IMG/VR virus record: IMGVR_UViG_3300045988_091582
Source of the DNA: a virus
Length of the DNA: 64,000 nt
Reading direction: 5' to 3' (one strand)
Below are positions 18,676-61,256 of the stretch, one piece after another. Within the stretch, counting starts at the first letter, position 1. Each line of letters opens with the position of its first letter. The notes below the pieces were generated by a model. It saw only the letters and a list, made by a program, of their open reading frames with translations, searched no databases and was not told where the DNA came from. The position numbers and the translations under genes were made by a program.

Positions 18676-18729
18676 GTTTCCATAATAATGTGTTAACGTT
18701 TTACTAGTTTTCGATATAAACTAGTACTT

Positions 18730-19277: not shown

Positions 19278-19365
19278 TTTCATTTTTTTATAAAACTAAT
19301 ACGATTAATGTTTGAAATATAAAGTTAGTGGACTTTATAACGTTAAAGAGTTGTTAGGCTTCTGG

Positions 19366-19379
19366 TCTGTGAAGATAGG
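19366..19379 (+). repeat. TCTGTGAAGATAGG motif variant, copy 4 (upstream of tRNA)
   Basis: One indel relative to the 15-mer; 9 nt upstream of the tRNA-Ser-like gene. Confidence 0.5.
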
Positions 19380-19388
19380 AAGCTTTAT

Positions 19389-19466
19389 GGAGAAATGACT
19401 GAGTGGCACCCTGCTAAGGTGTTAGTCATATTATGTGGCTCGAAGGTTCGAATCCTTCTTTCTCCG
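19389..19466 (+). tRNA. tRNA-Ser(GCT)-like, short D region
   Basis: GGAGAAA/TTTCTCC acceptor; anticodon arm CACC-CTGCTAA-GGTG (GCU); long variable arm; T arm GAAGG-TTCGAAT-CCTTC; only ~9 nt where the D arm should be. Confidence 0.45.
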
Positions 19467-19481
19467 CTTTATTAGATATCT

Positions 19482-19553
19482 GGGATATTGGTGTAACGAC
19501 AGCCACGTTGGGATTTGACCCCAAAAGAAGAGGTTTGACTCCTCTATATCCTT
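19482..19553 (+). tRNA. tRNA-Gln(TTG)
   Basis: GGGATAT/ATATCCT acceptor; anticodon arm TTGGG-ATTTGAC-CCCAA; T arm AGAGG-TTTGACT-CCTCT. Confidence 0.65.
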
Positions 19554-19575
19554 CTAATTTTAACAGGTGACTTAC

Positions 19576-19660
19576 GGTGTGGGAACCGTCATCTACGAGG
19601 GGTTAGATTGGTGAATAGCTCGTACGGGAATAAGCCTAAGGAGTTCGAATCTCTACACCT
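19576..19660 (+). tRNA. tRNA-like gene, fold unresolved
   Basis: GGTGTGG/CTACACC acceptor pairing (7/7) and GAGTTCGAATCTC T-loop; internal TACGAG/CTCGTA stem encloses a ~19-nt loop. Confidence 0.3.
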
Positions 19661-19849
19661 GACAATTTAATAGGTACTAAACAACTCTCAGTGATTCTAT
19701 TAAATAGCGTAATTACCTTAAAATTAATCATTTGGGTTAAAAAGAGAAAGAACGTTAGATAGCTGAGGACAATGGAATAGTTTAAATATAACCAGTGAAA
19801 ATTGCCTATTATTTAAATAGATTATTAACACATTAATTATAGATAAATT

Positions 19850-20239
19850 ATGACAAGACAAGATTATTTTATTAGTAAAACCAATTTAATAGCACAAATA
19901 GAAAGTGCTAAGAAATTTGGTTGTAAAAATGTACTCAAGTGTGCAAAATTAAACTTAGCTGAACTTGAAAAGAAGTATAAAGAAGAACATCTTTCTAATC
20001 CTCTGTTCAGTTACATGGTAACTGAGGAAGAAATGGATGAGCTTATTAGAAATGATGAAAAGCCTACATTTAAAATCAAAGTAACTTTTAAAAGTGGAGA
20101 AGCTTATGATTTAATGTTTTACCATGAACTTAAAAGTGGAGTTAAACATTCTGATGTTGTGAAATGGGCGATGAAAGGATTAATTAAAACTATTTATCAT
20201 CCTGAAAATATTGTAGATGCTCGTTTTATTATGGGTTAA
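19850..20239 (+). CDS. hypothetical protein
   Basis: Track ORF 129 aa. Confidence 0.45.
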   Translation: MTRQDYFISKTNLIAQIESAKKFGCKNVLKCAKLNLAELEKKYKEEHLSNPLFSYMVTEEEMDELIRNDEKPTFKIKVTFKSGEAYDLMFYHELKSGVKHSDVVKWAMKGLIKTIYHPENIVDARFIMG

Positions 20240-20244
20240 AAGAT

Positions 20245-20604
20245 ATGGAAATAAAAACAATACAAATTGACTCCGATACATTTTTAGTGTTTAAAGGACG
20301 AGAGTACAGACAGATAAACATAAATAACATTGTATGTATAAAAACATCTGGTAAATATAGTACTATAATAGATGTTCATGGCAATGGTATTATTGTATGT
20401 TGTTCATTAAAAAATATTTCACGTGTTTTATGTATTGATTTTATTCTTGCAACACAAGGATTTTTAATAAATCATAAATACATATCTGAAATAACTAGAA
20501 AGAATGATGAAAATAATACATATATCTTAAAGTTAAATGATGATGTCCATACAACTGTGGATATTTCATTACATGTAGCTACAAATATGTTAAAACAACT
20601 GTAA
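20245..20604 (+). CDS. hypothetical protein
   Basis: Track ORF 119 aa. Confidence 0.45.
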   Translation: MEIKTIQIDSDTFLVFKGREYRQININNIVCIKTSGKYSTIIDVHGNGIIVCCSLKNISRVLCIDFILATQGFLINHKYISEITRKNDENNTYILKLNDDVHTTVDISLHVATNMLKQL

Positions 20605-20635
20605 TACCATAATAGTTTTTAAAGTTTATAAATAA

Positions 20636-20674
20636 ATATTGTTGGCAACTAGCAGATAATTAGTTGCTATTTGG
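20636..20674 (+). promoter_or_regulatory. conserved hairpin element abutting tRNA-Leu
   Basis: ATATTGTTGGCAACTAGCAGATAATTAGTTGCTATTTGG; second copy of the 18115 element. Confidence 0.45.
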
Positions 20675-20756
20675 CTCAGTATCCGAATTGGTATAGGAGA
20701 TGGTCTTAAACACCATTGGACATGTGTCCGTACGGGTTCGAGTCCCGTCTGAGCTA
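20673..20756 (+). tRNA. tRNA-Leu(TAA), type II
   Basis: GGCTCAG/CTGAGCT acceptor; anticodon arm ATGGT-CTTAAAC-ACCAT; variable arm GGACA..TGTCC; T arm ACGGG-TTCGAGT-CCCGT. Confidence 0.75.
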
Positions 20757-20944
20757 CATAATTGATTATTTATTATGTTTTGAAAAATTAAAATCATTCA
20801 TAATTACTGTGAATTTGTGAAAATTTATAAGTAATGTAAAATTTTCGTTTTGTAGAAGATTTTATCTTTCTTTTAAACTCATATTGCTTGTGAAAGTAGT
20901 ATGAGTTTTTAAATAAGGCTATATAGCAATACTAGTATAAATAG

Positions 20945-21017
20945 AAATGTGTAGCTTAAAGCGGTAGAGCACTGACTAGGTAACCAGAGGTTGGCAGTTC
21001 GAGTCTGTCCGCATTTC
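20945..21017 (+). tRNA. tRNA-like gene, anticodon arm unresolved
   Basis: AAATGTG/CGCATTT acceptor; D arm GCTT..GAGC; T arm GGCAG-TTCGAGT-CTGTC; 17 nt between do not form a canonical arm. Confidence 0.35.
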
Positions 21018-21211
21018 CTTTTTCTATCATAAATTTTAATTTTTAAGTTATTAAAAATAAAAGAGTTTTGCTTGTGAAAGTAGAATTTTTTATCAAAATC
21101 AAAATGTGAAAACTTTAATAAGTCGGAGGACTTACAAAACTCAAAAAAGTGTGTCTTAGTGGCAGCTAGCAAGTAGGGAGGAGAGAATTAACGACTCTCA
21201 GACACATCTTC

Positions 21212-21284
21212 GGGCTTGTAGTTCAATCGGTTAAAACGGGAGACTCATAATCTCTTATTCTCGGTTCAATCCCGGGCGAGCCCA
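21212..21284 (+). tRNA. tRNA-Met(CAT)
   Basis: GGGCTTG/CGAGCCC acceptor; anticodon arm GGAGA-CTCATAA-TCTCT; T arm CTCGG-TTCAATC-CCGGG. Confidence 0.7.
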
Positions 21285-36107: not shown

Positions 36108-36188
36108 GTCTAGATAGCCAAGTGGTCAACGGCAGCAAGCTGTTAACTTGCCCCGAAAGGTTCCTAGGTTCGAATCCTAGTCTAGGCG
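36108..36188 (+). tRNA. tRNA-like gene, anticodon GTT with long variable region
   Basis: GTCTAGA/TCTAGGC acceptor; D arm GCC..GGC; anticodon arm GCAAG-CTGTTAA-CTTGC; T arm CTAGG-TTCGAAT-CCTAG; 12-nt variable region is unusual for a GUU anticodon. Confidence 0.45.
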
Positions 36189-36200
36189 CAATAAACATAT

Positions 36201-36271
36201 GGAGTATTAAGCCCTGTTGGTAAGGGAACTAGACTGTCACTCTAGTAAAACTAAGGGTCCCTTATATTCCG
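36201..36271 (+). tRNA. tRNA-Asp(GTC)-like, no canonical T arm
   Basis: GGAGTAT/ATATTCC acceptor; anticodon arm CTAGA-CTGTCAC-TCTAG; T region replaced by a short AAGG-GTC-CCTT hairpin. Confidence 0.35.
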
Positions 36272-36404
36272 CAAATAATGGAGAGCACCTAGTTGTTAAC
36301 TGGGTGGTTGTTAGAGGTAGCGGTGGCAGCCTGATAGCTCAATGTATTATTAGAATATGGTCACGATAGTTTGCCCGTCTAATGCCATATTCGCCTTTAT
36401 TCTA

Positions 36405-36476
36405 GCTTCAATAGCACAGTGGTAGTGCAGCTCACTTGTAATGAGCAGGTCGTGGGTCCGAATCCTACTTGAAGCT
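36405..36476 (+). tRNA. tRNA-Thr(TGT)
   Basis: GCTTCAA/TTGAAGC acceptor; D arm GCAC-AGTGGTA-GTGC; anticodon arm GCTCA-CTTGTAA-TGAGC; T arm GTGGG-TCCGAAT-CCTAC. Confidence 0.75.
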
Positions 36477-36656
36477 CTCTAATTTAACATGGAGCATGTA
36501 CCAAAGCAGTATCTTAACTCAAGGGGCATTGAAAAGAGAGGTAACGTTACTCATAATATAGTCATGTCGAAGGTTGAGAGAACCTTATAAAAAGTCATCG
36601 ATAGATGGTACTGAAAGACTTTGCTTCGCCGAAAATTCTTTAAAACAACATATATC

Positions 36657-36725
36657 GCGGATGTGGTGTAATGGTAACATGCTAGGCTCATAACCTAGAG
36701 TAGTCGTTCAAATCGAACATCCGCA
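36657..36725 (+). tRNA. tRNA-Met/Ile(CAT)
   Basis: GCGGATG/CATCCGC acceptor; anticodon arm CTAGG-CTCATAA-CCTAG; T loop TTCAAAT with a weak 3-bp stem. Confidence 0.6.
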
Positions 36726-36787
36726 AGATTCACATAGTAAGAACCTCCACGTGGTGTGAATTGGGTAATGCTAATCTTACTAAAAAT

Positions 36788-36871
36788 TATCTAGTATGTG
36801 AAGTGGTCAAACACAACAAACTGTAAATTTGTCGCTATTTAGCTTCGGGAGTTCGAATCTCTCCTAGACAA
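36788..36871 (+). tRNA. tRNA-Tyr(GTA), type II
   Basis: TATCTAG/CTAGACA acceptor (one A-C mismatch); D arm TGTG..CACA; anticodon arm ACAAA-CTGTAAA-TTTGT; long variable arm; T arm GGGAG-TTCGAAT-CTCTC. Confidence 0.55.
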
Positions 36872-40306: not shown

Positions 40307-40806
40307 ACTTAGTTTGGCTAAAATTAATAAAGCGAATCTTAACTCATAAGTATTATGTTGCTAAATATTGTTTTCAAATAGGATTATATTGGCAAGGTAT
40401 TACTCATGATTTATCTAAATTTAGTTTTACAGAATTCTCAAGAGCTATTAAGTACTGGGATGATAATATAAGTTCATTAGCAAATGAACGTAAAATATTA
40501 GGATATAGTCAAACATTCCTTCATCATAGAGGACGAAATCCTCATCATTATGAATATTGGATACATTCTTTAGATGATGGAGGAGTTCCTGCTAGAATGC
40601 CTAAAAAATATGTTTTAGAACTTATATGTGATTATTTAGCGGCAGCTAAAACATATGGAGCTGACCCTAGAAAAGAATATACATGGTGGGCTAAACAACA
40701 ATCTCATATGAAAATCCACAAAGAAACTAAGGATTATATAACTGAAGTGTTTTATAAATATAGTATAGGTTTAACATTAAAAGAATCAATTAATGGAAAT
40801 TATTAA
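40303..40806 (+). CDS. hypothetical protein, possible HD-type metal-dependent hydrolase
   Basis: Track ORF 167 aa; His-rich motifs ITHDLSKF and LHHRGRNPHHYEYW; assignment weak. Confidence 0.4.
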   Translation: MNLVWLKLIKRILTHKYYVAKYCFQIGLYWQGITHDLSKFSFTEFSRAIKYWDDNISSLANERKILGYSQTFLHHRGRNPHHYEYWIHSLDDGGVPARMPKKYVLELICDYLAAAKTYGADPRKEYTWWAKQQSHMKIHKETKDYITEVFYKYSIGLTLKESINGNY

Positions 40807-42346
40807 TGCAACTGATGGCTACAAGCTTGGTCATCATCGTATGTACCCAGAGGGTACACAAATGGTTTATAGTAACTGGACTCCTAGAAGTAATCGTTAC
40901 TTCCCAGAAGCTACAGAAGGTTCTGTAGTATTTGGTATTCAGTACTTTGTAAAAAAGTATTTGATAGAGGAATTTAACGAATGGTTTGTTCTTCCTAAGG
41001 AAGAAGCTATTAAACAGTTTTCTTATCGTGTAGGTAACTTTGTAGATATTAATCAGGTTGGAACAAAGCATATTGAGGAGCTTTATGATTTAGAATATCT
41101 TCCTATTGAAATTAAAGCTCTTCCTGAAGGTTCTATCTGTCCTATAAGAGTACCTATGATGACTATTAAAAATACTCTTCCTGATTTCTTCTGGTTGACT
41201 AATTATTTGGAGACTCTGATTAGTTGTACTCTATGGCTTCCTTGTACTTCTGCAACAAGTGCTCGTCTTTATAAGAAGAGACTTATGGAACATGCTAAAA
41301 AGACTGGATTCCCAGAAGATGTAAATTTAGGCTTCTCTTGTCACGATTTTTCAATGAGAGGTATGGCAGGACTTGATGCATCTGTTATTTCAGGTATGGC
41401 TCATATGACCTCATTCTGTGGTAGTGAAACAATTCCTGCTATCGAAGCAGTAGAGCATTATTATAATGCAGATGTTACTAAAGAACTCGTAGCTGCAACT
41501 GTTCCGGCTTCAGAACATTCAGTAATGTGCGCAGGGGGTGAAGATGGCGAGATTGAAACATATCGTCGTCTTATTAATGATCTATATCCAACAGGTATTA
41601 TCTCAATAGTATCTGATACTTGGGATTTCTGGCAGGTAGTTGAGAAATTCTTGCCTAAGCTTAAAGCAGACATTATAAAGCGTAATGGTCGAGTAGTAAT
41701 TCGCCCTGATAGTGGTGATCCAGTAGATATTATCTGTGGTCTTCGTACAAATCCTCATTACCACACTGCGATGAAGGAAGGTAAGTATTACTGTGATTTC
41801 AATCCATTTATGGATGATGATGAAAGTCATTATGTAGAAGTATCTGAAGGTCAGTATTATGGAGCATATTATATGCTAGGTAAAATCTTTGGATGGAATA
41901 CTACAGTAAATGATTATCGTTATCCAAGCACTAAGATTGGATTGCTTTATGGAGATTCTATCACTCTAGAACGTCAACGTGATATCTATACCAGATTAGA
42001 GAGTGCTCATATGGCAGCTTGTAATCTTGTTCTTGGTATTGGATCTTACACTTATCAGTTTAAGAGTCGTGATTCTTTAGGATTCGCAGTTAAAGCAACT
42101 GCTTGTATAATTAATGGCAGACTTATAGAAATTTATAAGCATCCAAAGACTGATGATGGAACGAAGAACTCTCTCAAAGGTCTTATTAGAGTTGAAGAAG
42201 AGAATGGTAAGTATGTCGCTTATGACCAGCAGACTAAGGATGCAGAACTGCAAGGTTGTCTTAAAACAATCTTTGTAGATGGAGAATTAGTAAGAGAATA
42301 TTCTCTTTCTGAAATTCGTGAACGTGTAAATTCAACATTAGTATGA
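40793..42346 (+). CDS. nadV: nicotinamide phosphoribosyltransferase (NAMPT/NadV)
   Basis: 517 aa; N-terminal ATDGYKLGHHRMYPEGT.MVYSN...R.. and overall length match the NAMPT family. Confidence 0.7.
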   Translation: MEIINATDGYKLGHHRMYPEGTQMVYSNWTPRSNRYFPEATEGSVVFGIQYFVKKYLIEEFNEWFVLPKEEAIKQFSYRVGNFVDINQVGTKHIEELYDLEYLPIEIKALPEGSICPIRVPMMTIKNTLPDFFWLTNYLETLISCTLWLPCTSATSARLYKKRLMEHAKKTGFPEDVNLGFSCHDFSMRGMAGLDASVISGMAHMTSFCGSETIPAIEAVEHYYNADVTKELVAATVPASEHSVMCAGGEDGEIETYRRLINDLYPTGIISIVSDTWDFWQVVEKFLPKLKADIIKRNGRVVIRPDSGDPVDIICGLRTNPHYHTAMKEGKYYCDFNPFMDDDESHYVEVSEGQYYGAYYMLGKIFGWNTTVNDYRYPSTKIGLLYGDSITLERQRDIYTRLESAHMAACNLVLGIGSYTYQFKSRDSLGFAVKATACIINGRLIEIYKHPKTDDGTKNSLKGLIRVEEENGKYVAYDQQTKDAELQGCLKTIFVDGELVREYSLSEIRERVNSTLV

Positions 42347-47317: not shown

Positions 47318-48304
47318 ATGACAACAGTTTTAGGTGATAAACTCAATCAAGCTTTAGAAGCTAAGAATAATGATGTAGAAACATTTCTCTGGAAAGGTTC
47401 CAGAAAAATTGTAGATGGTGAACGTGTTCAGTCTTCCATAAAAATGGTAGATATGACTGAAGAAGAATTACGTAAAGCATATAAACATTGTGAATCAATG
47501 CTTTATAGTGACAACTATGAAAATCCTGGACGACGAGTTTTGTTGGAACAGATTGAAGACCAAAGAACTCGATGCAATGCTGAGTTGTTCTTAATTTGGC
47601 TATTGTACCCAGGTGAAGGTAGTACTAGACAAGGTATTGTAAGAACTAGTTTCTTTAATATGCTCAATCAACAGATTACTTCTCAGGCAGAACAGTTTGC
47701 TAAAGATAATGCAGAAAGAGGTGAGGGAGAGACAAATGCTAGCGCTATTGCAGAAACTCTCTTTAAAGAATGGACTCTTAATGATATTATGAATAGTGAT
47801 GAAGATTCATTTACTATGTTTGCTTCATTGCCATTGTATATTGTTAGAGAAGCTTGTTTGTCTGCTTTAGGTAAATGTGTTCGTAAGCATATTACTCTTA
47901 CATTCATTACTGAGCTTGGATTGTGGTTTACACGTTCTGAATTATTAGAATTAAATAAGAAAGATGAGAATGGTCGTTTAATAGATAGAATTAAGCAAGT
48001 TGCTGAACTTCTAAATATTAAACTGAGAGATCCTAAGAATCCTGAAGACAAGAAAGGTCTTGTTTTAAAAATTGATGATAGAAAAGGCTTAACTCTAAAA
48101 GAGTTTAGTGCAATGCTTACTTTCCGTAAGGATAAATATGATAAGCGTTATAATGATCTGACTAAAGTACAATTAGAAACCTTAAGAGATAAAGTTTTAC
48201 TTCATCTTGAAAATAAGGTTAGATGGCAAGCTTCAGAATGGGAGAAGCGTATTAAGCAAATCAAAGCAGTAGCTGCTTACAATGGCTACAAACTCTCTGA
48301 TTGA
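47318..48304 (+). CDS. hypothetical protein
   Basis: Track ORF 328 aa. Confidence 0.5.
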   Translation: MTTVLGDKLNQALEAKNNDVETFLWKGSRKIVDGERVQSSIKMVDMTEEELRKAYKHCESMLYSDNYENPGRRVLLEQIEDQRTRCNAELFLIWLLYPGEGSTRQGIVRTSFFNMLNQQITSQAEQFAKDNAERGEGETNASAIAETLFKEWTLNDIMNSDEDSFTMFASLPLYIVREACLSALGKCVRKHITLTFITELGLWFTRSELLELNKKDENGRLIDRIKQVAELLNIKLRDPKNPEDKKGLVLKIDDRKGLTLKEFSAMLTFRKDKYDKRYNDLTKVQLETLRDKVLLHLENKVRWQASEWEKRIKQIKAVAAYNGYKLSD

Positions 48305-49893
48305 AGGAGAATTATTTCATAAAATCACTAGAGACGAACGACAAGAAGAGTGTCGTAGAAAATGGATAAAAAATCGTTGTGTAGGGACAATAGTAGCGTC
48401 CACTGGCTTTGGTACTGTAAAAGCGGATCATATATCTGTTAATTACAATGCCGTTCCGATAGAGGAATCTTCGGAATTATTATCGAGCAAAATCGGTGGA
48501 AGCCCTATAGAGGGTAATACCGAGGTAATAGAAGAAATTAAAGAATCTTCTACACCGTACAGCATAGAGAATGAACCTAATAAATAGTCTAGTTACTAAC
48601 TAGACTATTTTTATTAGAATATAATTTCTCCACGAGTGTTCGATGCCCCAACTGAAATAAGTGGGTAAAAATTTATGCGGGGCTTATTAGTAATAGTAAG
48701 AAGTATAGATAAAAAGCTATACGATAACAAGACCGAAATCCAGAATAGGACTAAACTGTATTAAAACAGTGCTAAAACACTTTCCACAATATCGAGTACT
48801 AATAATTGTACCAACAGAAACTTTACAAAAACAATGGTGTGGTTATATAGATTCTAATGGGCTAGGATTAAGTTGTGATGTACAAATAATAAACACTGTA
48901 ATAAAACATCCTGCCAAATATGATCTTTTAGTATTAGATGAGGCGCATAGATATGCAGCTGAGACTTTTGTAAGATTGTTTGAAGTAATAAAATACCAAT
49001 TTATCTTAGGTCTTACAGCTACTTTTGAGCGTCTTGATGGTAGAGATAAAATATTAGCAAAATACTGTCCAGTAATTGATACTATTGATATTAACACTTG
49101 TCTTGCAAATGGTTGGGTTAGCCCATATAAAGAATATCTAGTCTTAGTAAATGTTGATGATTTAGAAGAATATGAAAAAATAAATAAAGAATTCATTTCT
49201 CATTTTGAATTCTTCGGATTCTCTTGGGAGTTAGTTAATAAATTAGCTGGTCCTATGGGTTGGCGAAATAAACTACTCCTAAGAGATTCTATGTGTAGTG
49301 ATCCTAACAAGAAATCTGAAGTACTACAAAGTATAAATTATCATGCTATCAGATTTTGGGCTACTATGCACGAAAAGAAAGCTTTCATAAATAATCACCC
49401 AAAGAAAATTGAAATAGTAAAGAAAATTATAGAAGCTAGAAAGGATAAAAAAATAATAACTTTTGCTAATAATATTAAAATGGCAGAAAAAATTCCTAAT
49501 GCTACTGTATATTCTAGTAGAACTTCTAAGAAAAGAAGTGCTACAGCTATTGAAGATTTTAACTCTGGAAAGATAACTTTATTATCTACAGTAAAAAAAG
49601 CTGATGAAGGACTTGATGTAAAAGGTCTTTCTGTAGCTATTATATTTGGATTAGATAGTTCAACTACTAGAGCTTGTCAACGAAGAGGAAGGTCAATCCG
49701 TTTTGAAAAAGGTAAGACAGCAGAGATATTCAATATAGTATTAAATAGGACTCAAGAAACTAAGTGGTTTTATGATTCTCATAAGGGAGATTCTTTTATA
49801 ACTATAGACGAATCAGAATTGGATAAAGTATTACAAGGTAAAGACTTTACCCCAGGTGAAAAGATAGTTCCTAAATTTGATTTTAGATTCTGA
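48282..49893 (+). CDS. SF2 (DEAH) helicase, gene split by a 349-nt intervening sequence
   Basis: Exon 1 48282-48413 ends ...TRDERQEECRRKW..CVGTIVASTGFG; exon 2 48763-49893 begins KTVLKHFPQYRVLIIVPT..., has VLDEAH and GLTATF; joining restores Walker A ASTGFGKT. Confidence 0.55.
48414..48762 (+). other. intervening sequence in helicase gene (intron-like, type unresolved)
   Basis: 349 nt; shifts frame 0 to frame 1 as exon joining requires; exon-1 frame reads in for 58 codons to a stop; contains a terminator-like hairpin. Confidence 0.4.
48586..48613 (+). terminator. terminator-like hairpin inside the intervening sequence
   Basis: TAGTCTAGTTACTAACTAGACTA + TTTTT. Confidence 0.4.
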
Positions 49894-49971
49894 ATCTATG
49901 TATTAATATCGCTCTGAAAAGAGATTAACTTAATTACAGTATGGAAGATTTTTAATTATCCGAATTACTGT

Positions 49972-50583
49972 ATGTTTGATTTAAACATTGATGAAGAAAT
50001 AACAATTTTAGAAAAATATAATATTACTCCTACTGAATTATTTGTTGTTAAAGCTATAAATGCCTATATAGAAGATTATTCAGAAGATTATCTTCGTAGG
50101 TATTTAGCTATTGATAAAAAATATGTAGGAAGTTTTATAGATGTACTTAAATCTTTACAAGATAAAGGTCTTATCCTTAAAAGTTATAAAATTATTCCAG
50201 GAATGAAATTAGTTCCTGAAGAGATACCATTTAATAAAAACTTCTTAAAATGTTTAGCTAAGAGTTCCTTTGAAATGGGAAAAGAACTTAGAGAACATTA
50301 TCCTAGATTTAGAAATATTAATGGATGCTTAACTAGTATGCTAGGTGTTTCTAAAAAGTTTAATAGTCTTGAAGATGCTTATAGAACTTATGGAAAGAAA
50401 ATTCATTGGAATGAAGAACTTCATAAAAAGATTATTGATTTACTAGATTGGGAAGCTAATACTGATAATGGTATTATTAATTATAGCTTAGCTACATTTA
50501 TTGTAGATGAAAAATGGGAAGATCTTGAAGCTTTAAAGAATGGAGATTCAGGTATGAATTATAATTCAATCACCACTCTGTGA
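49972..50583 (+). CDS. hypothetical protein
   Basis: Track ORF 203 aa. Confidence 0.5.
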   Translation: MFDLNIDEEITILEKYNITPTELFVVKAINAYIEDYSEDYLRRYLAIDKKYVGSFIDVLKSLQDKGLILKSYKIIPGMKLVPEEIPFNKNFLKCLAKSSFEMGKELREHYPRFRNINGCLTSMLGVSKKFNSLEDAYRTYGKKIHWNEELHKKIIDLLDWEANTDNGIINYSLATFIVDEKWEDLEALKNGDSGMNYNSITTL

Positions 50584-51662
50584 GTTTAGAAAGTTTTAAA
50601 CGTTCGATAGAGCTTGGTAGACAAGGATTTAATCAAGGATTTAGTATGGGTCTTCCTAAATTGGAAGAATTAATAGGAGGTATTACTAAAAGTACCATGA
50701 CTCTTTTATTTGCGAGTTCAGGACAAGGTAAAAGTTCATGCGTATTATATTCTTATATATACGCTCCTTTAAAAGAGCATTTAGAAGATAATAAATTAAG
50801 AATTATTTTCTTTGCTCTTGAAATGAAAGAAGACTTTATTATAGCTAAATTATTAAGTACTTATTTATATGATACCTATCATATTGTTGTAACTGCTAAA
50901 CAAATATTATCTATAGGTAAAGATTATATTTTACCTGACGATTTATATGAGTATGTACAACTAGGATATGATTGGCTAGAAAAAGTATATAAAGTACTAA
51001 CTATATACGAAGGCTCTTTTAATTCTGATAAGCTCATAAAAGTTACAATGGAAGAGCTTAAAAAAGAAGGAGAATTTATAGAGAATAAATATATTCCGAA
51101 AGACCCTGAAAAAGTAATACTTTCAGTAACTGACCATGTTGGATTGATCCAGCCATCTAATGGAAGGAACAGAAAAGGAGAGATTGATGATTATACTAAT
51201 AAATTAGTTATCATTAGAAATAAAACAGGATTATCTCCAATTATTGTTATGCAATCCAATAGAGCAGTGGCTAACATGGAAAGAAAAAAGAATGAAGCTT
51301 TCATGGAGCCAATGGTGGAGGATATTAAGGAAACATCCACTGTTTCAGAGAATTCTGAAATTATTTTAGCTGTATATAATCCTCAAGTTGATAAAAGAAC
51401 AACTTATAGAGGTTATCAAGTTAAAGAAATGGGTTATAGGTTCCGAAGTATTCTTGTACTAAAGTCAAGATATGGAGAAAACCAAGTAGCTGATTGTTGT
51501 TTCTTTGACGGTGCAGTAAATAAGTGGATGGAAATGCCTAAGCCAGAAGAAATCTTTGATTATTCTAGATATCGAGCTACAAATAACAGTTCAACAGATA
51601 ATATAATAAAGAATGAAGATAAAGATGAAAAAGTGAAAAATAAATTAGACTATAGTTTATGA
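50580..51662 (+). CDS. DnaB-like replicative helicase (RecA-fold domain)
   Basis: 360 aa; GF..GLPKLEELIGGI..STMTLLFASSGQGKSS Walker A in DnaB C-terminal-domain context; Walker B-like VTDHVGLI. Confidence 0.55.
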   Translation: MSLESFKRSIELGRQGFNQGFSMGLPKLEELIGGITKSTMTLLFASSGQGKSSCVLYSYIYAPLKEHLEDNKLRIIFFALEMKEDFIIAKLLSTYLYDTYHIVVTAKQILSIGKDYILPDDLYEYVQLGYDWLEKVYKVLTIYEGSFNSDKLIKVTMEELKKEGEFIENKYIPKDPEKVILSVTDHVGLIQPSNGRNRKGEIDDYTNKLVIIRNKTGLSPIIVMQSNRAVANMERKKNEAFMEPMVEDIKETSTVSENSEIILAVYNPQVDKRTTYRGYQVKEMGYRFRSILVLKSRYGENQVADCCFFDGAVNKWMEMPKPEEIFDYSRYRATNNSSTDNIIKNEDKDEKVKNKLDYSL

Positions 51663-52411
51663 TTATTGGTTTAGCAGGTTTGAGTGGCACCGGAAAAAGC
51701 ACTTCTTTGCGTTATTTAGATTATAAAACAACATTTATTATTAGTTGTACTAATAAGCAGCTTCAAATTCCTGGATTTAGACGTAAATACAAGAAAGCTG
51801 AAGTTGTAAATAAAAAGCCAGTTGGAAATTGGCTTGTATCTAATGATTATACTACTATTGGTAAGTGGTTGAAAATTATTGATAAATTACGTCCTGATAT
51901 TAAGACAGTAGTTGTAGATGATGCTAACTATTGTCTTTCAAATAATATAATGGATTCTGCTCTTGAAAAAGGTTGGGATAAGCACGTTGTGTTTGCTAAA
52001 AATTACTATGATTTAATCATGGAAGCTAGTGAACTGCGTGAGGATCTTAATGTAGTATTCATTAGTCATATTATTAATGCTGGTACTGACCTCGACGAAC
52101 ATTGGCAGTTATATTCTAGTGGTAAAATGTTGGATAGAACCGTAAATATTGACGGTTTATTTTCTTATATTTTATATACTGAACGCCAGGTTGATGATGA
52201 TGGCAATATTAGTTATTTCTTTAGAACTAAAACCAACGGTAACGATACTTGTCGTAGTGTTGACGGATGTTTTAAAGATAAACTGATTGAACCTAATATG
52301 CAGAAGGTTTTAGATACTATCCATAACTTTGAATATAGTGAGGAAGAAGAAATCGCAGATGACAATAATGAAACCAATAATGATGACAATATTTTAAATG
52401 AAGCTAATTAA
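51659..52411 (+). CDS. P-loop NTPase (possible helicase loader)
   Basis: 250 aa; Walker A GLAGLSGTGKST, Walker B VVVDDAN; acidic C-terminus. Confidence 0.5.
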   Translation: MIIGLAGLSGTGKSTSLRYLDYKTTFIISCTNKQLQIPGFRRKYKKAEVVNKKPVGNWLVSNDYTTIGKWLKIIDKLRPDIKTVVVDDANYCLSNNIMDSALEKGWDKHVVFAKNYYDLIMEASELREDLNVVFISHIINAGTDLDEHWQLYSSGKMLDRTVNIDGLFSYILYTERQVDDDGNISYFFRTKTNGNDTCRSVDGCFKDKLIEPNMQKVLDTIHNFEYSEEEEIADDNNETNNDDNILNEAN

Positions 52412-53003
52412 AATGACAATTAAGTCCGAGTGGCTTAATGAAGAAACTGGAGAAATTTTTACTGATACACGTGAATTGAAGGATGATTCTGTAAAGAAGC
52501 CGTCTACTCGTAAGTCTTCTTCTAAAAAGAAAGACTCAGAAGTGGATGATACAAATCCTAATCCACTATTAATTCTTGAGGAGAATAAGTATATTCTTAA
52601 TAAGGCTGCTGTTGAGGCTCTTGGTGTAGAACCAGGAGATAAAGTAGATATTAAACAGCAGAAGCTTAATAAGAAAGAGTGCCTAGTTATCGGAGCTACT
52701 GAAACATTTGGTACGCAGTCAGGTAATAAATTAACTCAGAAAAATGCAGTTTCATATAGAGGAAAGAATAACCAGAACCTTGCTGAGCATGGTAATGAGT
52801 TTACTTTCACTCCACATCCTAAAATTGATGGATTGTTTATATTAACAGGTAATCGAGAGCCTGAGATTAAAGAAGATGTAGTCCCTGAAGCAGAGGATAT
52901 TGCATCAGAAGATGAATTAGATGACGAAATGGCTAGTCTTATTGACGGCAGCGCAGATGATACAGAAATCTCAGATAATGATTTTAATTTCGATAATCTT
53001 TAA
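52398..53003 (+). CDS. acidic hypothetical protein
   Basis: Track ORF 201 aa; Asp/Glu-rich tail. Confidence 0.45.
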   Translation: MKLIKMTIKSEWLNEETGEIFTDTRELKDDSVKKPSTRKSSSKKKDSEVDDTNPNPLLILEENKYILNKAAVEALGVEPGDKVDIKQQKLNKKECLVIGATETFGTQSGNKLTQKNAVSYRGKNNQNLAEHGNEFTFTPHPKIDGLFILTGNREPEIKEDVVPEAEDIASEDELDDEMASLIDGSADDTEISDNDFNFDNL

Positions 53004-53015
53004 TAATATAGCAAT

Positions 53016-53786
53016 ATGAATTTAAATTTTGGTGGTCTTGGTGATATTAATCCTACAAGTAAGAAAGGTCTTCGTCCTTATGGAATTTATCTCGTTCAGT
53101 TAAAAAGTGTAGAAACTAAAGAGGGTAAAGGTAAGCAAGACCCTGACACAACTTGGAAATCTCTAGTACTTCATTTTGAAGGTGAACAAGGAACTTATCA
53201 AGAATCATTGTTTTATCCTAATGAAAGTTCTGCTAAAAGATATGAGGGTAAGAGAAAAGATTCTAAAGGTGTAGAGTTCCCATATGTACTTCCTTCAGCA
53301 TTTGAGCAGCTTAAGGGTTTTATGCTGCATATTATAACAGTAGTAGGAGGTGATAAGGCTAAAGAATTGTTTGTAACTAAAGCTCCTGCTTGTAAGAGTA
53401 CTGACCAATTCATGCAGCTTTTCCAGGCAGTATTGACTAAGTATTGTATGAATAAAAACTTTTATTTAAAGCTTAGTGGTCGTAAGGAAAAGAAAAAGGA
53501 TGAAAAAGGAATTATGAAGGAAACTGGTAATGTATTTGCCAAAATTCCTGATATTGGAGCTATTAATAGTGATGGACAGTTCTATATCCGTGATAATTTT
53601 GCTAGCTTAGAGGAAGATAAATTGTCATTCTCTAGTTATGAGATTAAACAGAAGGAGGATATGGAGAAGCGTAAGCCTACTGCTCCTGTGCCAGCAGCTG
53701 ATTCAGAAGAGGCTAAATCTATTGACTCTACTGAAGGCAAGGAGGCTCAAGATGAAGACTTCGACGCTATGCTGGCAGATATGTAG
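53016..53786 (+). CDS. putative single-stranded DNA-binding protein
   Basis: 256 aa; SSB-like acidic C-terminal tip ...QDEDFDAMLADM; sits in the replication module; inference only. Confidence 0.4.
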   Translation: MNLNFGGLGDINPTSKKGLRPYGIYLVQLKSVETKEGKGKQDPDTTWKSLVLHFEGEQGTYQESLFYPNESSAKRYEGKRKDSKGVEFPYVLPSAFEQLKGFMLHIITVVGGDKAKELFVTKAPACKSTDQFMQLFQAVLTKYCMNKNFYLKLSGRKEKKKDEKGIMKETGNVFAKIPDIGAINSDGQFYIRDNFASLEEDKLSFSSYEIKQKEDMEKRKPTAPVPAADSEEAKSIDSTEGKEAQDEDFDAMLADM

Positions 53787-53809
53787 TAATTATAAAGTAA
53801 GTAGTTTTT

Positions 53810-54820
53810 ATGGAATTAGATTTTTCTTATAAACCAGATATTACTAAGGACTACTTACTTAAATATAACACAGAGGAAGCCTATATGGAGTATTATCTTG
53901 GCGTAAAAGTTTCAAAAAAATTAATTTGTAATCCTTTACGTAAAGATAAAAATCCTACGGCTTCCTTTTTTCGTAACTCTAAAGGAGAACTTATATTTCA
54001 TGATTTTAATGGAAGTTTTTATGGAAACTTTATATCTGTAATTATGACTAAATATGCTTGTAAATACCATCAAGCATTAGACATTATAGCTAAAGATTTT
54101 GGCTTATTAAAAGGACAAAATAATTATCATTCTGTAATACAATCAAGCACTTCTTTTGTTAAAACAAACGAGCCAGCAGATATACGAGTAGAAATAAAAA
54201 ATTTCTCAGAAGATGAATTAAAATGGTGGAGTAAGCAAGGAGTTTCTTTAGAATTACTAAATAAATATAAAGTATATTCTTGTCGTACTGTATTTTTAAA
54301 TGGTAATATTCAAACTATAAAGACCAAAGATAACTTTATCTTCGGATATTATGGAGGAACAATGCAAGGTAAAGAATTATGGAGAATTTATTATCCTAAA
54401 CGTAAGGAATATAGATTTCTAACAAATTGGCCCTCTAAAAAGGTTCAGGGTTATAGTCAGTTACCTAAAAAAGGTAATTTATTAGTCATAACTAAAAGTA
54501 TGAAAGATACTATGTGTTTAAGGGGTTTAGGTGTAACAGCTTGTGCTCCAAATAGTGAGACACAATGGTTATCTGAAAACATGTTAAATGATCTAAAAGA
54601 AAGATTTACTTATATAGTAACTTTTTATGATAATGATAGACCTGGAATGTTTAATATGGCTAAAATAAGAAGAAATCATCCAGAATTACTTTATTTCTTT
54701 ATACCTCATAAATTCAAAGTAAAAGATATAAGTGATTTTTATAAAAAATATGGTCGACAGAATACTTTAAAATTTATAAAGTATTATATAAAAAAATTAA
54801 GTAACTATGTCAAAAAGTAA
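53810..54820 (+). CDS. DNA primase (Toprim domain)
   Basis: 336 aa; Toprim acidic motif YIVTFYDNDRPG; zinc-binding-like N-terminus. Confidence 0.5.
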   Translation: MELDFSYKPDITKDYLLKYNTEEAYMEYYLGVKVSKKLICNPLRKDKNPTASFFRNSKGELIFHDFNGSFYGNFISVIMTKYACKYHQALDIIAKDFGLLKGQNNYHSVIQSSTSFVKTNEPADIRVEIKNFSEDELKWWSKQGVSLELLNKYKVYSCRTVFLNGNIQTIKTKDNFIFGYYGGTMQGKELWRIYYPKRKEYRFLTNWPSKKVQGYSQLPKKGNLLVITKSMKDTMCLRGLGVTACAPNSETQWLSENMLNDLKERFTYIVTFYDNDRPGMFNMAKIRRNHPELLYFFIPHKFKVKDISDFYKKYGRQNTLKFIKYYIKKLSNYVKK

Positions 54821-56949: not shown

Positions 56950-57482
56950 AATTAAGAATTGGTTTAGATTTAGATGATACATTAAATGAGTTTATGAATC
57001 CATATTTAAAAAGATTTGGATATCCTAAGTCTGATGGAGAAATAACAAAAAATGTACAACAAGTTTTAATAAAAGACAGAGAATGGTGGATAAATCTTCC
57101 AGTAAAAAATAAAATAAACTTTATACCTGAATTATATTGTACTAAAAGAGTATGCAATAAAGACTATAGTAAAACATGGCTAAAGAATAATGGTTATCCT
57201 AGTAAACCTGTTTATCAAGTCTTATGCCAGCGTGCTAATAAAGCTCGATATATAAAAGGTAGAGTTGATATTTTCATTGATGATTCTGTTAGTAATTTTA
57301 TTCAGATGAATCTAGCAGGATTACCTTGCTTATTAATAGCTTCTGAATCTAATGAAAAATGGGGTCCTTATGGTAAGATTTATAGTTTAGATAAAGAAGA
57401 GATAGAATATGGGTATGAATGTATAAAAGAGTCGGAAGACTTTAATAATTACTTACGTGAAATTAAGTCAAATTTCTATTAA
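56946..57482 (+). CDS. HAD-superfamily 5'(3')-deoxyribonucleotidase-like hydrolase
   Basis: 178 aa; IGLDLDDTL matches HAD motif I; VDIFIDDS matches motif IV. Confidence 0.55.
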   Translation: MKLRIGLDLDDTLNEFMNPYLKRFGYPKSDGEITKNVQQVLIKDREWWINLPVKNKINFIPELYCTKRVCNKDYSKTWLKNNGYPSKPVYQVLCQRANKARYIKGRVDIFIDDSVSNFIQMNLAGLPCLLIASESNEKWGPYGKIYSLDKEEIEYGYECIKESEDFNNYLREIKSNFY

Positions 57483-58503
57483 ACCTCTGATAGAGACTTT
57501 AAGAGTTGAAGATATTGATGACAATACTTATTTCTCAGAAAAGTATAATAATTATATCTCAAACTCTAGATTATCTAAAATAAATCCAGATCAAGATGGT
57601 TCTCCAACAGAGTTCTTTGATAATTGGGGTAAGACTAAGTTAAATACAACTAGCTTAGAATTTGGTAGTTGGTTGCATACTTTAGTTTTACAACCTAATG
57701 ACTTCTTTCTAACAGACGTTAGCAGACCTACTGCTAAAATGGGATCAATGGCAGATTATATTTATAAGAAAACACAAGGTATCAATGTTACTAATGATAT
57801 TATATTAGAAGCATCTGATAAATGTGATTATTTTAAAGATAAAATGTCAGATAAAAAAATAGAAAAAGTATTAGCAGACTGCACTCAATACTGGTGTGAT
57901 AGAAAAGCTTTTGAAAAAGAAAATAATGATACTAGAACACCAATATTTACAGATCCTAAAAATCACGCTAAACTAAAAGTCTGTCTAGAATCTTTAAATA
58001 GTGATACACAAATTCAATCTTTACTAAACCCTGAAGGATTACTAGAACAACCAATTATTGGTAATGAGATAGCTTTCCTTATAGATGTTTTAGTAGAGGC
58101 TCCAGAGCATAAACCTTTTATACTAAAAATTAAATCAAAACTTGATAATTATAGTATAGATAAAGAAGAAGGAATAATCACTGTAAATGATTTAAAAACC
58201 ACAGGAGATTTGATAAATAATTTTGCTAAAGGAGCTCTTATTAAATATCACTATTATAGAGAAATGGCTTTATATAGTTGGTTATTAACTATGGCTGCTA
58301 AGAAGAATTATAACATTGAGAATCCTAAAATTAGAAGTAATTTTTTAGTAGTAGAAACTATTCCAAATTTTAATACTAAAGTAGTTCCTATGACTAGAGA
58401 ACTTTTTAATAAAGGATTTAAAGAGTTTACTCACCTTCTTAAATTAGTAGCATTCTATTGTATGCATGGTTATGAGGGATTCGGAATTACTCAAGAGACC
58501 TGA
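57457..58503 (+). CDS. PD-(D/E)xK nuclease (RecB/YqaJ-like)
   Basis: 348 aa; ITVNDLKTTGD (D..E.K core) and FLVVETIPN. Confidence 0.5.
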   Translation: MKLSQISIKPLIETLRVEDIDDNTYFSEKYNNYISNSRLSKINPDQDGSPTEFFDNWGKTKLNTTSLEFGSWLHTLVLQPNDFFLTDVSRPTAKMGSMADYIYKKTQGINVTNDIILEASDKCDYFKDKMSDKKIEKVLADCTQYWCDRKAFEKENNDTRTPIFTDPKNHAKLKVCLESLNSDTQIQSLLNPEGLLEQPIIGNEIAFLIDVLVEAPEHKPFILKIKSKLDNYSIDKEEGIITVNDLKTTGDLINNFAKGALIKYHYYREMALYSWLLTMAAKKNYNIENPKIRSNFLVVETIPNFNTKVVPMTRELFNKGFKEFTHLLKLVAFYCMHGYEGFGITQET

Positions 58504-58825
58504 TTATACTAAACTTTCCGATTTATATCGTAAATATTTTAGTTTAGGGTCTTTAGGAGAAAGTATAAATTTAAAATTTGCACTTATATCGTTACTTGGA
58601 TATATGGTAAATTCTATGAAAAAGAAAAAACCTGGAGTTACTTATTATGAAGTAACTGCTAAATTAGCAGAAAAAACAGGTCTTGATGAAGATACAATAC
58701 AAGCTATTGCTATCATCACTGAGGATTTTTCATATGGATGTACCGATTTTCCAACATTTGGCGTGCAACCAAAAGATATGCCAGCAAAAATAAGAGAATT
58801 AATGGGGAAATTTCTTCCATTCTAA
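58466..58825 (+). CDS. hypothetical protein
   Basis: Track ORF 119 aa. Confidence 0.4.
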   Translation: MVMRDSELLKRPDYTKLSDLYRKYFSLGSLGESINLKFALISLLGYMVNSMKKKKPGVTYYEVTAKLAEKTGLDEDTIQAIAIITEDFSYGCTDFPTFGVQPKDMPAKIRELMGKFLPF

Positions 58826-58953
58826 AAAAATTAATTTTTTTATAATTTTCTTTTTGGAGGCAAAAAATATAGATTATATTAGCATTACAAAGATAAAGAA
58901 AAAACATCGCAGATGATTTGATAATAAGAATTAATGTTAATATATTTTTGAAA

Positions 58954-59598
58954 ATGAGTGAAATTTTTAATTTTAAGAGTTTTGAAGTAAATGCAGAAAC
59001 AAAGGAAGCAGCAGTAGCACAGGTAGAGAAAGAGAATTTCCATATTAATGGTGATGCAACACAGGCATGGAAGAAGTTCCATGAGAGAAATACTAAAGTA
59101 ACTTCTAATGATGAGAAGGAATTTAAGCTGGAGTATTTGAAGAAAAAGACTAAGAATGCTCCTGGTAGTGGTTTCATTGTAACTCTTTCTAGTGCTGTTG
59201 TAAGTACACGTGAGCGTCCTTGGAAGGTTGTTGATATTAAGACTGAGGGTAAGCGTGATACTCAGAAGAAGTTTGATTTGGTAGACCACGATACAAAGGA
59301 AGTACTGAAGACTTTGAAGTCTGAGCGTGTAAAGAACGAGAAGGCTGGCGAGCCAATTCTTGATAAGGATGGTAACGATACTGGTCGTGTTGAGCCAGAT
59401 ACAAAGGTTATTCGTCCTACTAAGACCGCAGCTAAGGAAATGGCTAAGGAACTTATTAAGAAGGGCTTTAAGGGTCAGATCGATATCGTTCAGGGTAAGG
59501 AGTCTATTGGTTCTGATCCAGTAGTAGCTACTGTAACTTATACTCCATCTAAGAGTACTAAGAATGGTCGCTATATGTTCTTTGGTTTGGAATTTTAA
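58954..59598 (+). CDS. hypothetical Lys/Glu-rich protein, higher-GC gene
   Basis: Within track ORF 58918..59598; start MSEIFNFKSF at 58954; elevated GC; followed by a strong terminator. Confidence 0.5.
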   Translation: MSEIFNFKSFEVNAETKEAAVAQVEKENFHINGDATQAWKKFHERNTKVTSNDEKEFKLEYLKKKTKNAPGSGFIVTLSSAVVSTRERPWKVVDIKTEGKRDTQKKFDLVDHDTKEVLKTLKSERVKNEKAGEPILDKDGNDTGRVEPDTKVIRPTKTAAKEMAKELIKKGFKGQIDIVQGKESIGSDPVVATVTYTPSKSTKNGRYMFFGLEF

Positions 59599-59622
59599 TT
59601 TTATCCCATAACTTTTAAAAGT

Positions 59623-59656
59623 AAGGCAGGTGCTCGCGAGAGTATCTGCCTTTTGT
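59623..59656 (+). terminator. rho-independent terminator
   Basis: AAGGCAGGTGCTCGCGAGAGTATCTGCCTT + TTGT. Confidence 0.55.
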
Positions 59657-59729
59657 AATTTAGATACCTTTATTTTACTAGATACTTTTATTTATAAAGG
59701 CGTAACAGCTATCTAATTTTTAAAAAAGT

Positions 59730-61256
59730 ATGAAACAAGCAACAAAATCTTCTTATATTAAGTTCTTTAATGATGCAATTAATAATAATCATTCTTTAAA
59801 AGCTCAATGTACTATATCAGGAAAAAATATAAATACTGTATATATGACAATAAGAAATCTTAGAAAGAAAGAAAATAAAGACGAAGACGATAAGAAGATA
59901 TTGGAATTATATGACAGACTAAAGAATACTAAGAAAAAAGAAGTAAAGAAAGATACAGATGATGCTTCTAATACTTGGGAAATAAGAGACGAAGAGACTG
60001 GTAAAATTACTGGATATAAATTTGAGATTTTCAGAAGAAATAAGCCCGCAATCACAGGAGTCTTTACTAGAAACGAAATGAATAGTGTATATAGAATGTA
60101 TACTTATTACGGTTCTGGTTTAACCCAGCAGATTGTCAGCAGATATTTCCCAGACTATTCTCTTATTGACTTTAAAAGAATTTTACGAGCTTTTAATATT
60201 ACTAAAGCATCTTCTCCATTTGCTCCTCATATGTATGAAGAATATACTGAGGATGAATTAAAAGAAATGCATCTTAGAGAAAAAGAGAATGATTTCTTAA
60301 AAAGAATAGAGAAAGATGAAGTAAAGGATTTAAGAGCTTTAGTTACTAAATTAACTAAGGAAACTTCTAAGTCTTTAAATAAGGAACTTATAGAAACTAC
60401 TATTAAAAATACAATAAAGGATTATAAAGAACTTCCAGTAAATATTAATAATAAAGAAGCAAAATATCCTGATTTAATTATATGGTTATCTGATTTGCAT
60501 ATTGGAGCTTATAATGCTAAGTATAGTAGTTTTGTACAGTTACCTTCTTATGATGTTCCAGAAATTAAATCTAGATTATCTAGAATTGTGGAGTCTTTTG
60601 TAGGACAAGAATATCATTCTGTATATATAGTTAATCTTGGTGATTCTATTGATGGGTTCAATAAAGAAACTACTAGAGGAGGTCATGAACTTCCTGAGAT
60701 TCTTGATAATAAAGAAATTAGTGAAGCATTTATAGAGTGTATGATGGAATTCTTCGCTACTCTTACAGTAAAAGTAAAAAGTAAAGATTTTAATTATCTC
60801 TCTATAGGAGAATCTAATCATGGTGGGGATTTTGAATGGTTAAACCAGAAACTCTTAGCTGCATATTTAACTAAATATAATGTTAAGAGTTATATTAGTA
60901 ACTATCCTATTGATAATTTTATCATTGGAGATCATCAATTTCTATATGCTCATGGTAAAGATAATAATTCTCAGACTAGACAATTTCCTCTTACTTTAAA
61001 CCCTCAGACTGAATTATTCTTTGCTAATTATATAGCAGAAAAAGGTATATACAGTCCTCATATTTATGTAGTAAAAGGGGATTTACATAATTATGCTTAT
61101 ACTACTGGTAAGCAGTTTGATTATATTTCAGTAGGTAGTATGTATGGTAGTAGTAATTATATTACAGCTAACTTTGGACATACTAAATGGAGTATTAATT
61201 ATACTATCGTAAAAGATAAAGATATTTTGATGGGAACTATTAAAGGAAATAATTAA
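59730..61256 (+). CDS. calcineurin-like metallophosphoesterase (SbcD/Mre11-like?)
   Basis: 508 aa; DLHIG, GDSIDG and GESNHGG match metallophosphatase motifs I-III; coiled-coil N-terminus. Confidence 0.55.
   Translation: MKQATKSSYIKFFNDAINNNHSLKAQCTISGKNINTVYMTIRNLRKKENKDEDDKKILELYDRLKNTKKKEVKKDTDDASNTWEIRDEETGKITGYKFEIFRRNKPAITGVFTRNEMNSVYRMYTYYGSGLTQQIVSRYFPDYSLIDFKRILRAFNITKASSPFAPHMYEEYTEDELKEMHLREKENDFLKRIEKDEVKDLRALVTKLTKETSKSLNKELIETTIKNTIKDYKELPVNINNKEAKYPDLIIWLSDLHIGAYNAKYSSFVQLPSYDVPEIKSRLSRIVESFVGQEYHSVYIVNLGDSIDGFNKETTRGGHELPEILDNKEISEAFIECMMEFFATLTVKVKSKDFNYLSIGESNHGGDFEWLNQKLLAAYLTKYNVKSYISNYPIDNFIIGDHQFLYAHGKDNNSQTRQFPLTLNPQTELFFANYIAEKGIYSPHIYVVKGDLHNYAYTTGKQFDYISVGSMYGSSNYITANFGHTKWSINYTIVKDKDILMGTIKGNN

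Follow-up and report, generated by a model that had tools for sequence, protein, structure and literature searches.

The window, the whole 64,000-nucleotide (nt) stretch of IMG/VR virus record IMGVR_UViG_3300045988_091582, carries on its plus strand (48282-49893) a gene for an XPB/Rad25-like superfamily 2 (SF2) helicase that is interrupted within its Walker A motif. Exon 1 (48282-48413) has 44 codons, ends in VASTGFG and translates as MATNSLIEGELFHKITRDERQEECRRKWIKNRCVGTIVASTGFG; exon 2 (48736-49893) starts with KSRIGLNCIKTVLKHF and includes the stop codon. Between them lies an insert of 322 nt (48414-48735; 3n+1), preceded by U48413, the last base of exon 1 and the 5' splice site nucleotide, and ending in G48735; it separates the glycine and lysine codons of Walker A, GGU and AAA. 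The spliced product is a protein of 429 amino acids with ResIII and Helicase_C domains, whose best match among solved structures was archaeal XPB/Rad25 (E = 2e-23). The predicted ligated message runs from ASTGFG into KSRIGLNCIKTVLKHF (RNA ...UUUGGU followed by AAAUCCAGA; intact protein across the join ASTGFGKSRIGL...), whereas unspliced RNA would give only a truncated product of 101 amino acids. We consider it very likely that the helicase gene of a human-gut phage is interrupted here, at 48414-48735, by a group I intron in an endonuclease-free allele, and that this intron would be spliced out to leave the 429-amino-acid message. Its absence from 11 alleles, covariation and the minimum free energy (MFE) z-score carry this reading.

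The limits of the insert were fixed by comparison with homologs. The match between the window and MT835492 (locus L001, 96% identical) stops exactly between 48413 and 48414 and resumes at 48474, a break in homology that points to a split gene far beyond chance. Scanning viral contigs with the spliced protein gave 11 intron-less alleles of 96-97% nt identity, each of 1287 nt (429 codons), which read ...ACTGGATTTGGT directly followed by AAGAGCAGAATAGGACTAAACTGTATTAAAACAGTG... (...TTTGGT, then AAGAGCAGAATAGGACTAAACTGTATTAAAACAGTG; protein STGFGKSRIGLNCIKTVL); the intron-less site is thus ACTGGATTTGGT joined to AAGAGCAGAATA. An uninterrupted, 45% identical homolog (L002) reads TGFGKTRCAINCLKAVLSKYPTIRALVVVPT, and a gap-free alignment of the window with it requires exon 2 to start at 48736 (TGFGKSRIGLNCIKTVLKHFPQYRVLIIVPT). 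In tblastn with the L002 protein, residues 3-37 ended at the end of exon 1 and residues 38-71 fell at 48736-48837. The helix that follows GKT in XPB structures likewise aligns gap-free (GKS-RIGLNCIKTVL against GKT-HVAMAAINELS).

An earlier note on this DNA, made from the letters alone, had described both reading frames, and translation bore them out. The open reading frame (ORF) at 48282-48587 contains ...RDERQEEC... (the R.ERQ.E motif) and VASTGFG, stays open past 48413 and ends, after a tail unrelated to the helicase, at a stop codon at 48585-48587; the second frame, read from 48763, runs through KTVLKHF...VLIIVPT...VLDEAH...GLTATF to 49893. The note's central claim, one SF2 helicase gene split in Walker A by an intron, also stands, but its boundaries and its GFG-KT join do not. 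It had set the 3' junction between 48762 and 48763, with a length of 349 nt; the true junction lies 27 nt upstream, between 48735 and 48736, and the length is 322 nt (349 is indeed 3n+1, as was calculated, and so is 322). Positions 48736-48762 are exon and encode KSRIGLNCI; every intact homolog has this stretch, which the former junction would remove, giving a product of 420 amino acids. The KT at 48763-48768 is coincidental, nine codons into exon 2 in the helix past the P-loop, and the true P-loop is GFGKS. Alignment with intact homologs, which the note had proposed, therefore fixes the join at 48413 to 48736, through L002 and the 11 intron-less alleles, and an option that it had left open, a group I intron with a different junction, is the answer.

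The insert belongs to a large family. A first pattern scan of viral contigs, with 20 nt that the helicase insert shares with another insert in L001, returned 10 loci; a second, with GATAAAAAGN{5,9}GATAACA, returned at least 120 loci in IMG/VR. More than 100 of these were matched by an nhmmer profile of the 285-nt 3' part, with E values down to 1e-40 outside the seed. About 75 distinct copies, compared side by side, share one helix order from the 5' splice site to the terminal G. The 5' splice site is followed by a variable loop, a GYCG-like guide, P2, the 5' strand of P3 and an A-rich J3/4; then come P4 around a short P5 with A-rich joints, P6/P6a and the P7 5' strand GUA[G/A/C](A/C)GC[R]UA. 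Next are P7.1 with the loop UGAAY...GAAUAUAAU, the P3 3' strand, P8, J8/7 (GAAAAUR) and the P7 3' strand UA[Y]GC[Y/G]. P9 (GNRA), P9.1 with the loop AUAAAAAG, GAUAACA, 3-5 nt and G complete the 3' end. The family was also found in 87 INPHARED phage records (34 from Staphylococcus and 19 from Bacillus phages, with others from Clostridium and Clostridioides phages, and the crAss-like records cr6_1, cr118_1, cr7_1 and cr131_1). In cr6_1 the ORF adjoining the family copy is annotated 'intron-encoded endonuclease', and in Staphylococcus phage ROSA an HNH ORF lies upstream of the core. Some viral contigs carry two or three copies within 1-2 kilobases (kb), as in L035 (1654-1917, 1967-2217 and 2493-2668) and L061 (415-1950), and in L035 two family copies flank a classical Intron_gpI; single genes are here interrupted several times.

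We scored the structure by pair counting on a MAFFT alignment (A2) of 22 diverse copies. Standard pairs occupied 98.1% of 1172 pair cells, compared with 69.6% after column shuffling and 33-42% with slid partners. Compensatory, both-sided changes were found in 42 of the 54 pairs, and each of the nine helices was supported. The strands follow the canonical order P3, P4, P5, P6, P7, P7.1, P3', P8, P7', P9, with the P3/P7 pseudoknot. The 322 nt fold with an MFE z-score of -5.85, and the centroid fold recovers P2, P3, P4, P5, P6, P7.1, P9 and P9.1.

At the 5' splice site the exon strand of P1, UGGU (48410-48413), pairs with the internal guide sequence GCCG (48450-48453), the P1 3' strand, and places a wobble, U48413·G48450, at the splice site; a conserved U·G in P1 is a hallmark of group I introns (PMC4227781). 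The P1 loop (L1, 48414-48449) is what is left after deletion of the endonuclease ORF, and its ends extend P1 through A48414-U48449, U48416-A48447, G48417-C48446 and U48418-A48445. The guide tracks the exon at other insertion sites: GCGAU/GUCGC (L060, L044 and L131), AUGCU/GGCGU (L035), GAGGU/GCCUC (L074) and AUGGU/GCCGU (L045). Two other guide candidates, GUGGAAGCC (48495-48503) and AAUACC, were rejected, as they do not covary with the GGC, GGA and GGT variants of the exon 1 glycine codon and both lie inside P4-P5. The P2 hairpin UUCCGA/UCGGAA (48454-48476) appears in both the MFE and centroid folds and has compensatory variants UUUCGA/UCGAAA (L005), UUCCAA/UUGGAA (L006) and UUCUG/CAGAA (L001). 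P3 joins UCGAGC (48483-48488) to GUUCGA (48638-48643), with compensatory changes in 6/6 pairs and 99.2% of cells paired, and forms the pseudoknot with P7 (order P3, P7, P3', P7'). P4 (48493-48497 with 48519-48523; 100% of cells paired) encloses P5 (48503-48506 with 48511-48514; 80%) between A-rich J4/5 and J5/4, and P6 (48524-48526 with 48554-48556) with P6a (48529-48535 with 48546-48552) shows compensation in 8/10 pairs and 97.7% pairing.

P7 consists of C48560, a bulged A48561 and GCAUA (48562-48566), paired with UAUGCG (48674-48679) in 100% of cells. Three of its pairs covary (AU/GC/CG, AU/GC and UA/CG) and three are invariant; the first pair, a covarying one, is followed by a single bulged nucleotide (A or C) and then by the G-C and C-G pairs G48562-C48678 and C48563-G48677, invariant in 22/22 sequences. 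The same bulge and G-C detail mark the guanosine-binding helix of the Tetrahymena and Azoarcus ribozymes. One of these two invariant pairs is a candidate for the guanosine-binding pair, the guanosine-binding site of group I introns being located in P7 (PMC3984707). P7.1 (GAGAA, 48567-48571, with UUCUC, 48626-48630; 4/5 pairs compensatory, 99.1% paired) closes the loop UGAAY...GAAUAUAAU. Within this loop is an optional hairpin (48584-48608), whose 5' arm contains the stop codon of the readthrough ORF. The earlier note had seen here a terminator-like palindrome, and a 9-base-pair (bp) palindrome, 48584-48592 with 48600-48608, is indeed followed by a U-run; a role as terminator, or as the R/S (P7) elements, was rejected, since a terminator scan left 48584-48608 unflagged and the element is an optional P7.1-loop hairpin. 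In most family members it is absent or swapped for unrelated hairpins.

The 3' part comprises the P8 hairpin (48644-48667; 4/5 pairs compensatory, 98.2% paired), the A-rich J8/7 (48668-48673), which forms conserved columns in A2, P9 (48683-48700), of 7 bp with the GNRA tetraloop GUAA at 48690-48693 (100% paired, 5/7 pairs compensatory), and P9.1 (48703-48722), with the invariant loop AUAAAAAG (100% paired, 6/7 pairs compensatory). The tail (48723-48735) reads GAUAACA, AGACC and G48735, the omega-G. The omega-G could not be placed at the junction given before; at the corrected junction, taken from the intron-less alleles, it is set by a covarying 2-bp P9.0, in which G48681 and G48682 pair with C48733 and C48734 just before it. 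P9.0 was paired in 82% of cells on the raw alignment, compared with 7-46% in slid controls, and covaries between AU and GC types; this pairing accounts for the variation of the tail (ACC, ACU, AUC or GCC). Neither CGGU in P4 nor GGU in the exon was accepted as partner of the tail ACCG, the covarying partner being J7/9. A terminal G was present in every family intron whose 3' junction is fixed by exon homology.

This core argues against a gene in pieces or a pseudogene, in which a mobile endonuclease cassette would have split the DNA and the two ORFs would be translated separately or not at all, without splicing. Free-standing endonucleases have split phage genes, as in the T-even nrdA and gene 39/60 cases, and the stop of ORF 48282-48587 does lie within a hairpin followed by a U-run, but the insert around it has a complete and strongly covarying group I core. 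The GTG at 48769, which could start a second ORF, is 11 codons past the true exon start and would lose the conserved KSRIGLNCIKT. Moreover, the break inside the P-loop leaves neither piece alone with a nucleotide-binding site, and both exons are intact, 96-99% identical to the intron-less alleles and free of frameshifts or stops. We regard this explanation as very improbable.

For the group I intron, if it behaves like others of its class, guanosine-initiated two-step self-splicing would restore the helicase mRNA as follows. The transcript would fold into the core, and the exon end UGGU would pair with the guide GCCG, U48413 forming a wobble with G48450. With P7 as its binding site, an external guanosine would attack the 5' splice site; G48735, positioned by P9.0, would then take the same P7 site, and the 3'-OH of exon 1 would attack the 3' splice site, yielding a ligated message for the intact 429-amino-acid helicase. 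Several points weigh against this interpretation. Catalysis is a prediction from structure. P1 in the window is short, with 4 exon pairs of which two are wobbles, and a P10 pairing with exon 2 was not evident. The exon 1 frame remains open for 58 codons of the intron, across P2-P7, and ribosomes translating it could therefore disturb folding; since the LAGLIDADG ORF is lost, a maturase, if one takes part, would have to act in trans. Finally, Rfam searches of the window (gathering score) and of the region (E<=10) matched no intron family to the insert, and Intron_gpI (RF00028) gave no match in 21 family loci (15 searched at the gathering score and 6 at E<=10).

The search with group I and group II models had also been proposed in the earlier note, and its outcome, no Rfam intron match for the insert, might be read as favouring another intron class (group II, an archaeal-type bulge-helix-bulge intron or an undescribed ribozyme) or translational bypassing, as might the initial failure to place omega-G. 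Rfam gave no group II match either. For group II, 322 nt is far too short (>600 nt expected), the 5' end is ACUGU and not GUGYG, the 3' end is CCG and not AY, and there is no domain V-like hairpin. Bypassing would call for matched take-off and landing codons, which are absent here, and we know of no precedent for bypassing of 322 nt. In contrast, the helix order, the pseudoknot, the bulged P7, the U·G of P1, P9.0 and the terminal G all fit group I, and we rate these alternatives as less probable still. Elsewhere in these searches Rfam gave chance matches only (BTnc049, L10 leader), and RF00028 did detect the classical group I intron beside two family copies in L035. The failure of RF00028 speaks against model coverage more than against group I membership, because phage introns are incompletely covered by the Rfam and GISSD models (PMC11878797).

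Close relatives of the window carry several alleles at this site. It is empty in 11 contigs, holds 322 nt in the window, L005, L010 and L145 (L147 has the same start but about 314 nt), 386 nt in L003, and 1212 nt with an ORF in L001, L011 and L012. The distant, 45% identical helicase homolog has the family at the same codon junction, with 577 nt (L006) or 1223 nt (L007). The insert is hardly an assembly or sequencing artefact, the least credible explanation of all: the window is metagenome-type sequence and its relatives are 'UNVERIFIED' records, but the 322-nt insert recurs with small differences on several independent contigs (L005/L144, L010/L148 and L145), alongside longer and shorter alleles at the same site.

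The 1212-nt form shows what the window has lost. In L001, L011 and L012 the P1 loop contains a 104-nt leader and an ORF of 319 amino acids, which in L001 matches Pfam LAGLIDADG_3 (E = 5e-8) and, weakly, LAGLIDADG_1, and has two LAGLIDADG motifs, YWLGFIFADGY and FIRGYFDGDGCF. The L001 ORF lies between the 5' splice site and the guide, its last ~60 codons spanning P2-P7 and its stop falling in the P7.1 loop. By tblastn, residues 278-318 of this ORF matched 48459-48581 of the window with 85% identity. The tail of ORF 48282-48587, which had been taken for unrelated low-complexity sequence, is therefore all that remains of a LAGLIDADG endonuclease gene after its deletion, the C-terminal ~42 codons (48459-48587, plus strand), in frame with exon 1 and overlapping P2 through P7. 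On this comparison the window form is a deletion allele from which most of the endonuclease ORF is gone, and the intron is a mobile element whose site is empty or holds 322 or 1212 nt in close relatives. The remnant codons were probably kept since the 3' end of the ORF doubles as the ribozyme core P2-P7, and homing may proceed on co-infection with related phages that supply the endonuclease. The exon 1 frame of the 322-nt allele is open for 58 codons into the intron, and that of the ORF-bearing allele meets TAA three codons past the junction. An intein was rejected: the L001 insert, at 1212 nt, is a multiple of 3 and contains a LAGLIDADG ORF, yet it has stop codons in the exon frame (GGT TTC AAT TAA), and the window form is 3n+1.

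The same intron family also interrupts a second P-loop gene. The gene for a DnaB-like helicase is split between the glycine and lysine codons of its own Walker A (SSGIG followed by KSS) in L001, L004 and L005, by an insert whose core is 74.5% identical to the helicase copy and which measures 381 nt (L001, 5821-6201) or 1354 nt with a LAGLIDADG ORF (L004, 738-2091). In the window this gene is intact (50580-51662; Pfam DnaB_C), and the DnaB-like site reads GGTATTGGT joined to AAGAGTTCT. All four combinations of presence and absence of the two introns occur among near-identical contigs. We compared the exon flanks of the helicase (window 48736-48741 against L135-L152 at position ~2633) and of the DnaB-like gene (window 50714-50722 against L001 6202-6210). 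Exon 2 of intron-plus alleles starts AAATC[C/A]AG, with the serine codon family switched relative to intron-less alleles, which start AAGAGCAG (helicase) and AAAAGTTC or AAGAGTTC (DnaB-like). Three differences in six bases, compared with about 3% overall divergence, look as if a short exon flank had been carried in together with the intron.

A wider proposal, to which we give somewhat less than an even chance, is that the family is a very widespread lineage of structurally distinct phage group I introns, one that lies beyond current models and that moved between two unrelated P-loop genes of the same phage, those for the SF2 and DnaB-like helicases, each time at the glycine-lysine junction and apparently with an AAATC flank. 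The marks of the lineage are the single P7.1 with its loop UGAAY...GAAUAUAAU, the P9.1 loop AUAAAAAG and the GAUAACA tail. If the proposal is true, a covariance model of the lineage would bring to light numerous split genes now hidden in phages of the gut and of Firmicutes.

The helicase gene is part of a replication module (47318-54820) with a 328-amino-acid ORF of unknown function, the XPB-like helicase, a 203-amino-acid ORF of unknown function, the DnaB-like helicase and an AAA_24-like ATPase, with a primase beyond. Exonuclease-like ORFs lie further downstream (57457-61256). Elsewhere the window contains a nicotinamide phosphoribosyltransferase gene (40793-42346) and 11 tRNA genes in two clusters, at 18150-21284 and 36108-36871 (Rfam tRNA, 41-68 bits). 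On the minus strand, an ORF of 272 amino acids (10529-11347) matched HNH endonuclease families (phrog_10822, E = 4e-42) and may be another mobile element.

For annotation, these results mean that the helicase is one protein of 429 amino acids, joined from 48413 to 48736, and not two ORFs. The Rfam model fails to see an abundant family of phage group I introns, and screens for protein domains also overlook its members without an endonuclease; annotations of gut phage genomes therefore probably miss a share of such split genes. The element itself is an ordinary mobile group I intron, and nothing changes in how group I introns are understood to work. The extra interest is modest and lies in the Rfam blind spot, in the endonuclease-free allele and in the twin insertions in two P-loop genes; the latter, in the helicase and DnaB-like genes at the same P-loop codon junction, offer a natural example of intron spread between similar targets.

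Inteins in the P-loop of replicative helicases are LAGLIDADG mobile elements that target the sequence coding for Walker A. The present element has the same kind of target but would be removed at the RNA level, protein splicing being excluded by the stops and the 3n+1 length. Phage group I introns in conserved genes of DNA metabolism are well known (PMC3984707). Those of T4 td, nrdB and nrdD, of Twort and of Bastillevirinae resemble the family described here in interrupting a conserved motif of a DNA-metabolism gene (PMC3984707, PMC11878797), in being patchy among close relatives and in having an optional endonuclease ORF in a peripheral loop. The present family differs from them in escaping detection by RF00028, in its LAGLIDADG endonuclease (those of phage introns are mostly GIY-YIG, HNH, PD-(D/E)xK or EDxHD; PMC3984707) and, in the L001 form, in an ORF located in the P1 loop and reaching ~190 nt into the core. 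A helix between P7 and P3' suggests subgroup IA. Subgroup IA2 has P7.1 and P7.2 and extended P9.0/P9.1/P9.2 (PMC4227781), a pattern matched here only in part: only a single, covarying P7.1 occurs, which closes a conserved loop of 14 nt and can hold an optional nested hairpin, and P9.0, P9 and P9.1 are present without P9.2.

Zeta-group crAss-like phages of the human gut, of 145-192 kb, have core genes rich in group I introns, some of which contain LAGLIDADG ORFs (PMC7886860). Relatives of the window lie on contigs of 97-190 kb, and the present family occurs in the crAss-like records named above; the phage of the window itself may or may not belong to the crAss-like order. The Zeta-group introns were found through their endonuclease domains (PMC7886860), and an endonuclease-free allele like that of the window would escape such a search. 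A close parallel is the group IA intron in nrdF of Bacillus thuringiensis, for which, as here, an endonuclease-encoding allele exists beside one with most of the gene deleted (PMC2248736). There the host gene is nrdF, the enzyme is of the GIY-YIG type and the ORF starts in P6a instead of the P1 loop. Its ORF likewise runs across core helices, and splicing in vivo occurs with either allele (PMC2248736); the B. thuringiensis intron provides a precedent for a functional intron allele whose endonuclease gene is mostly deleted.

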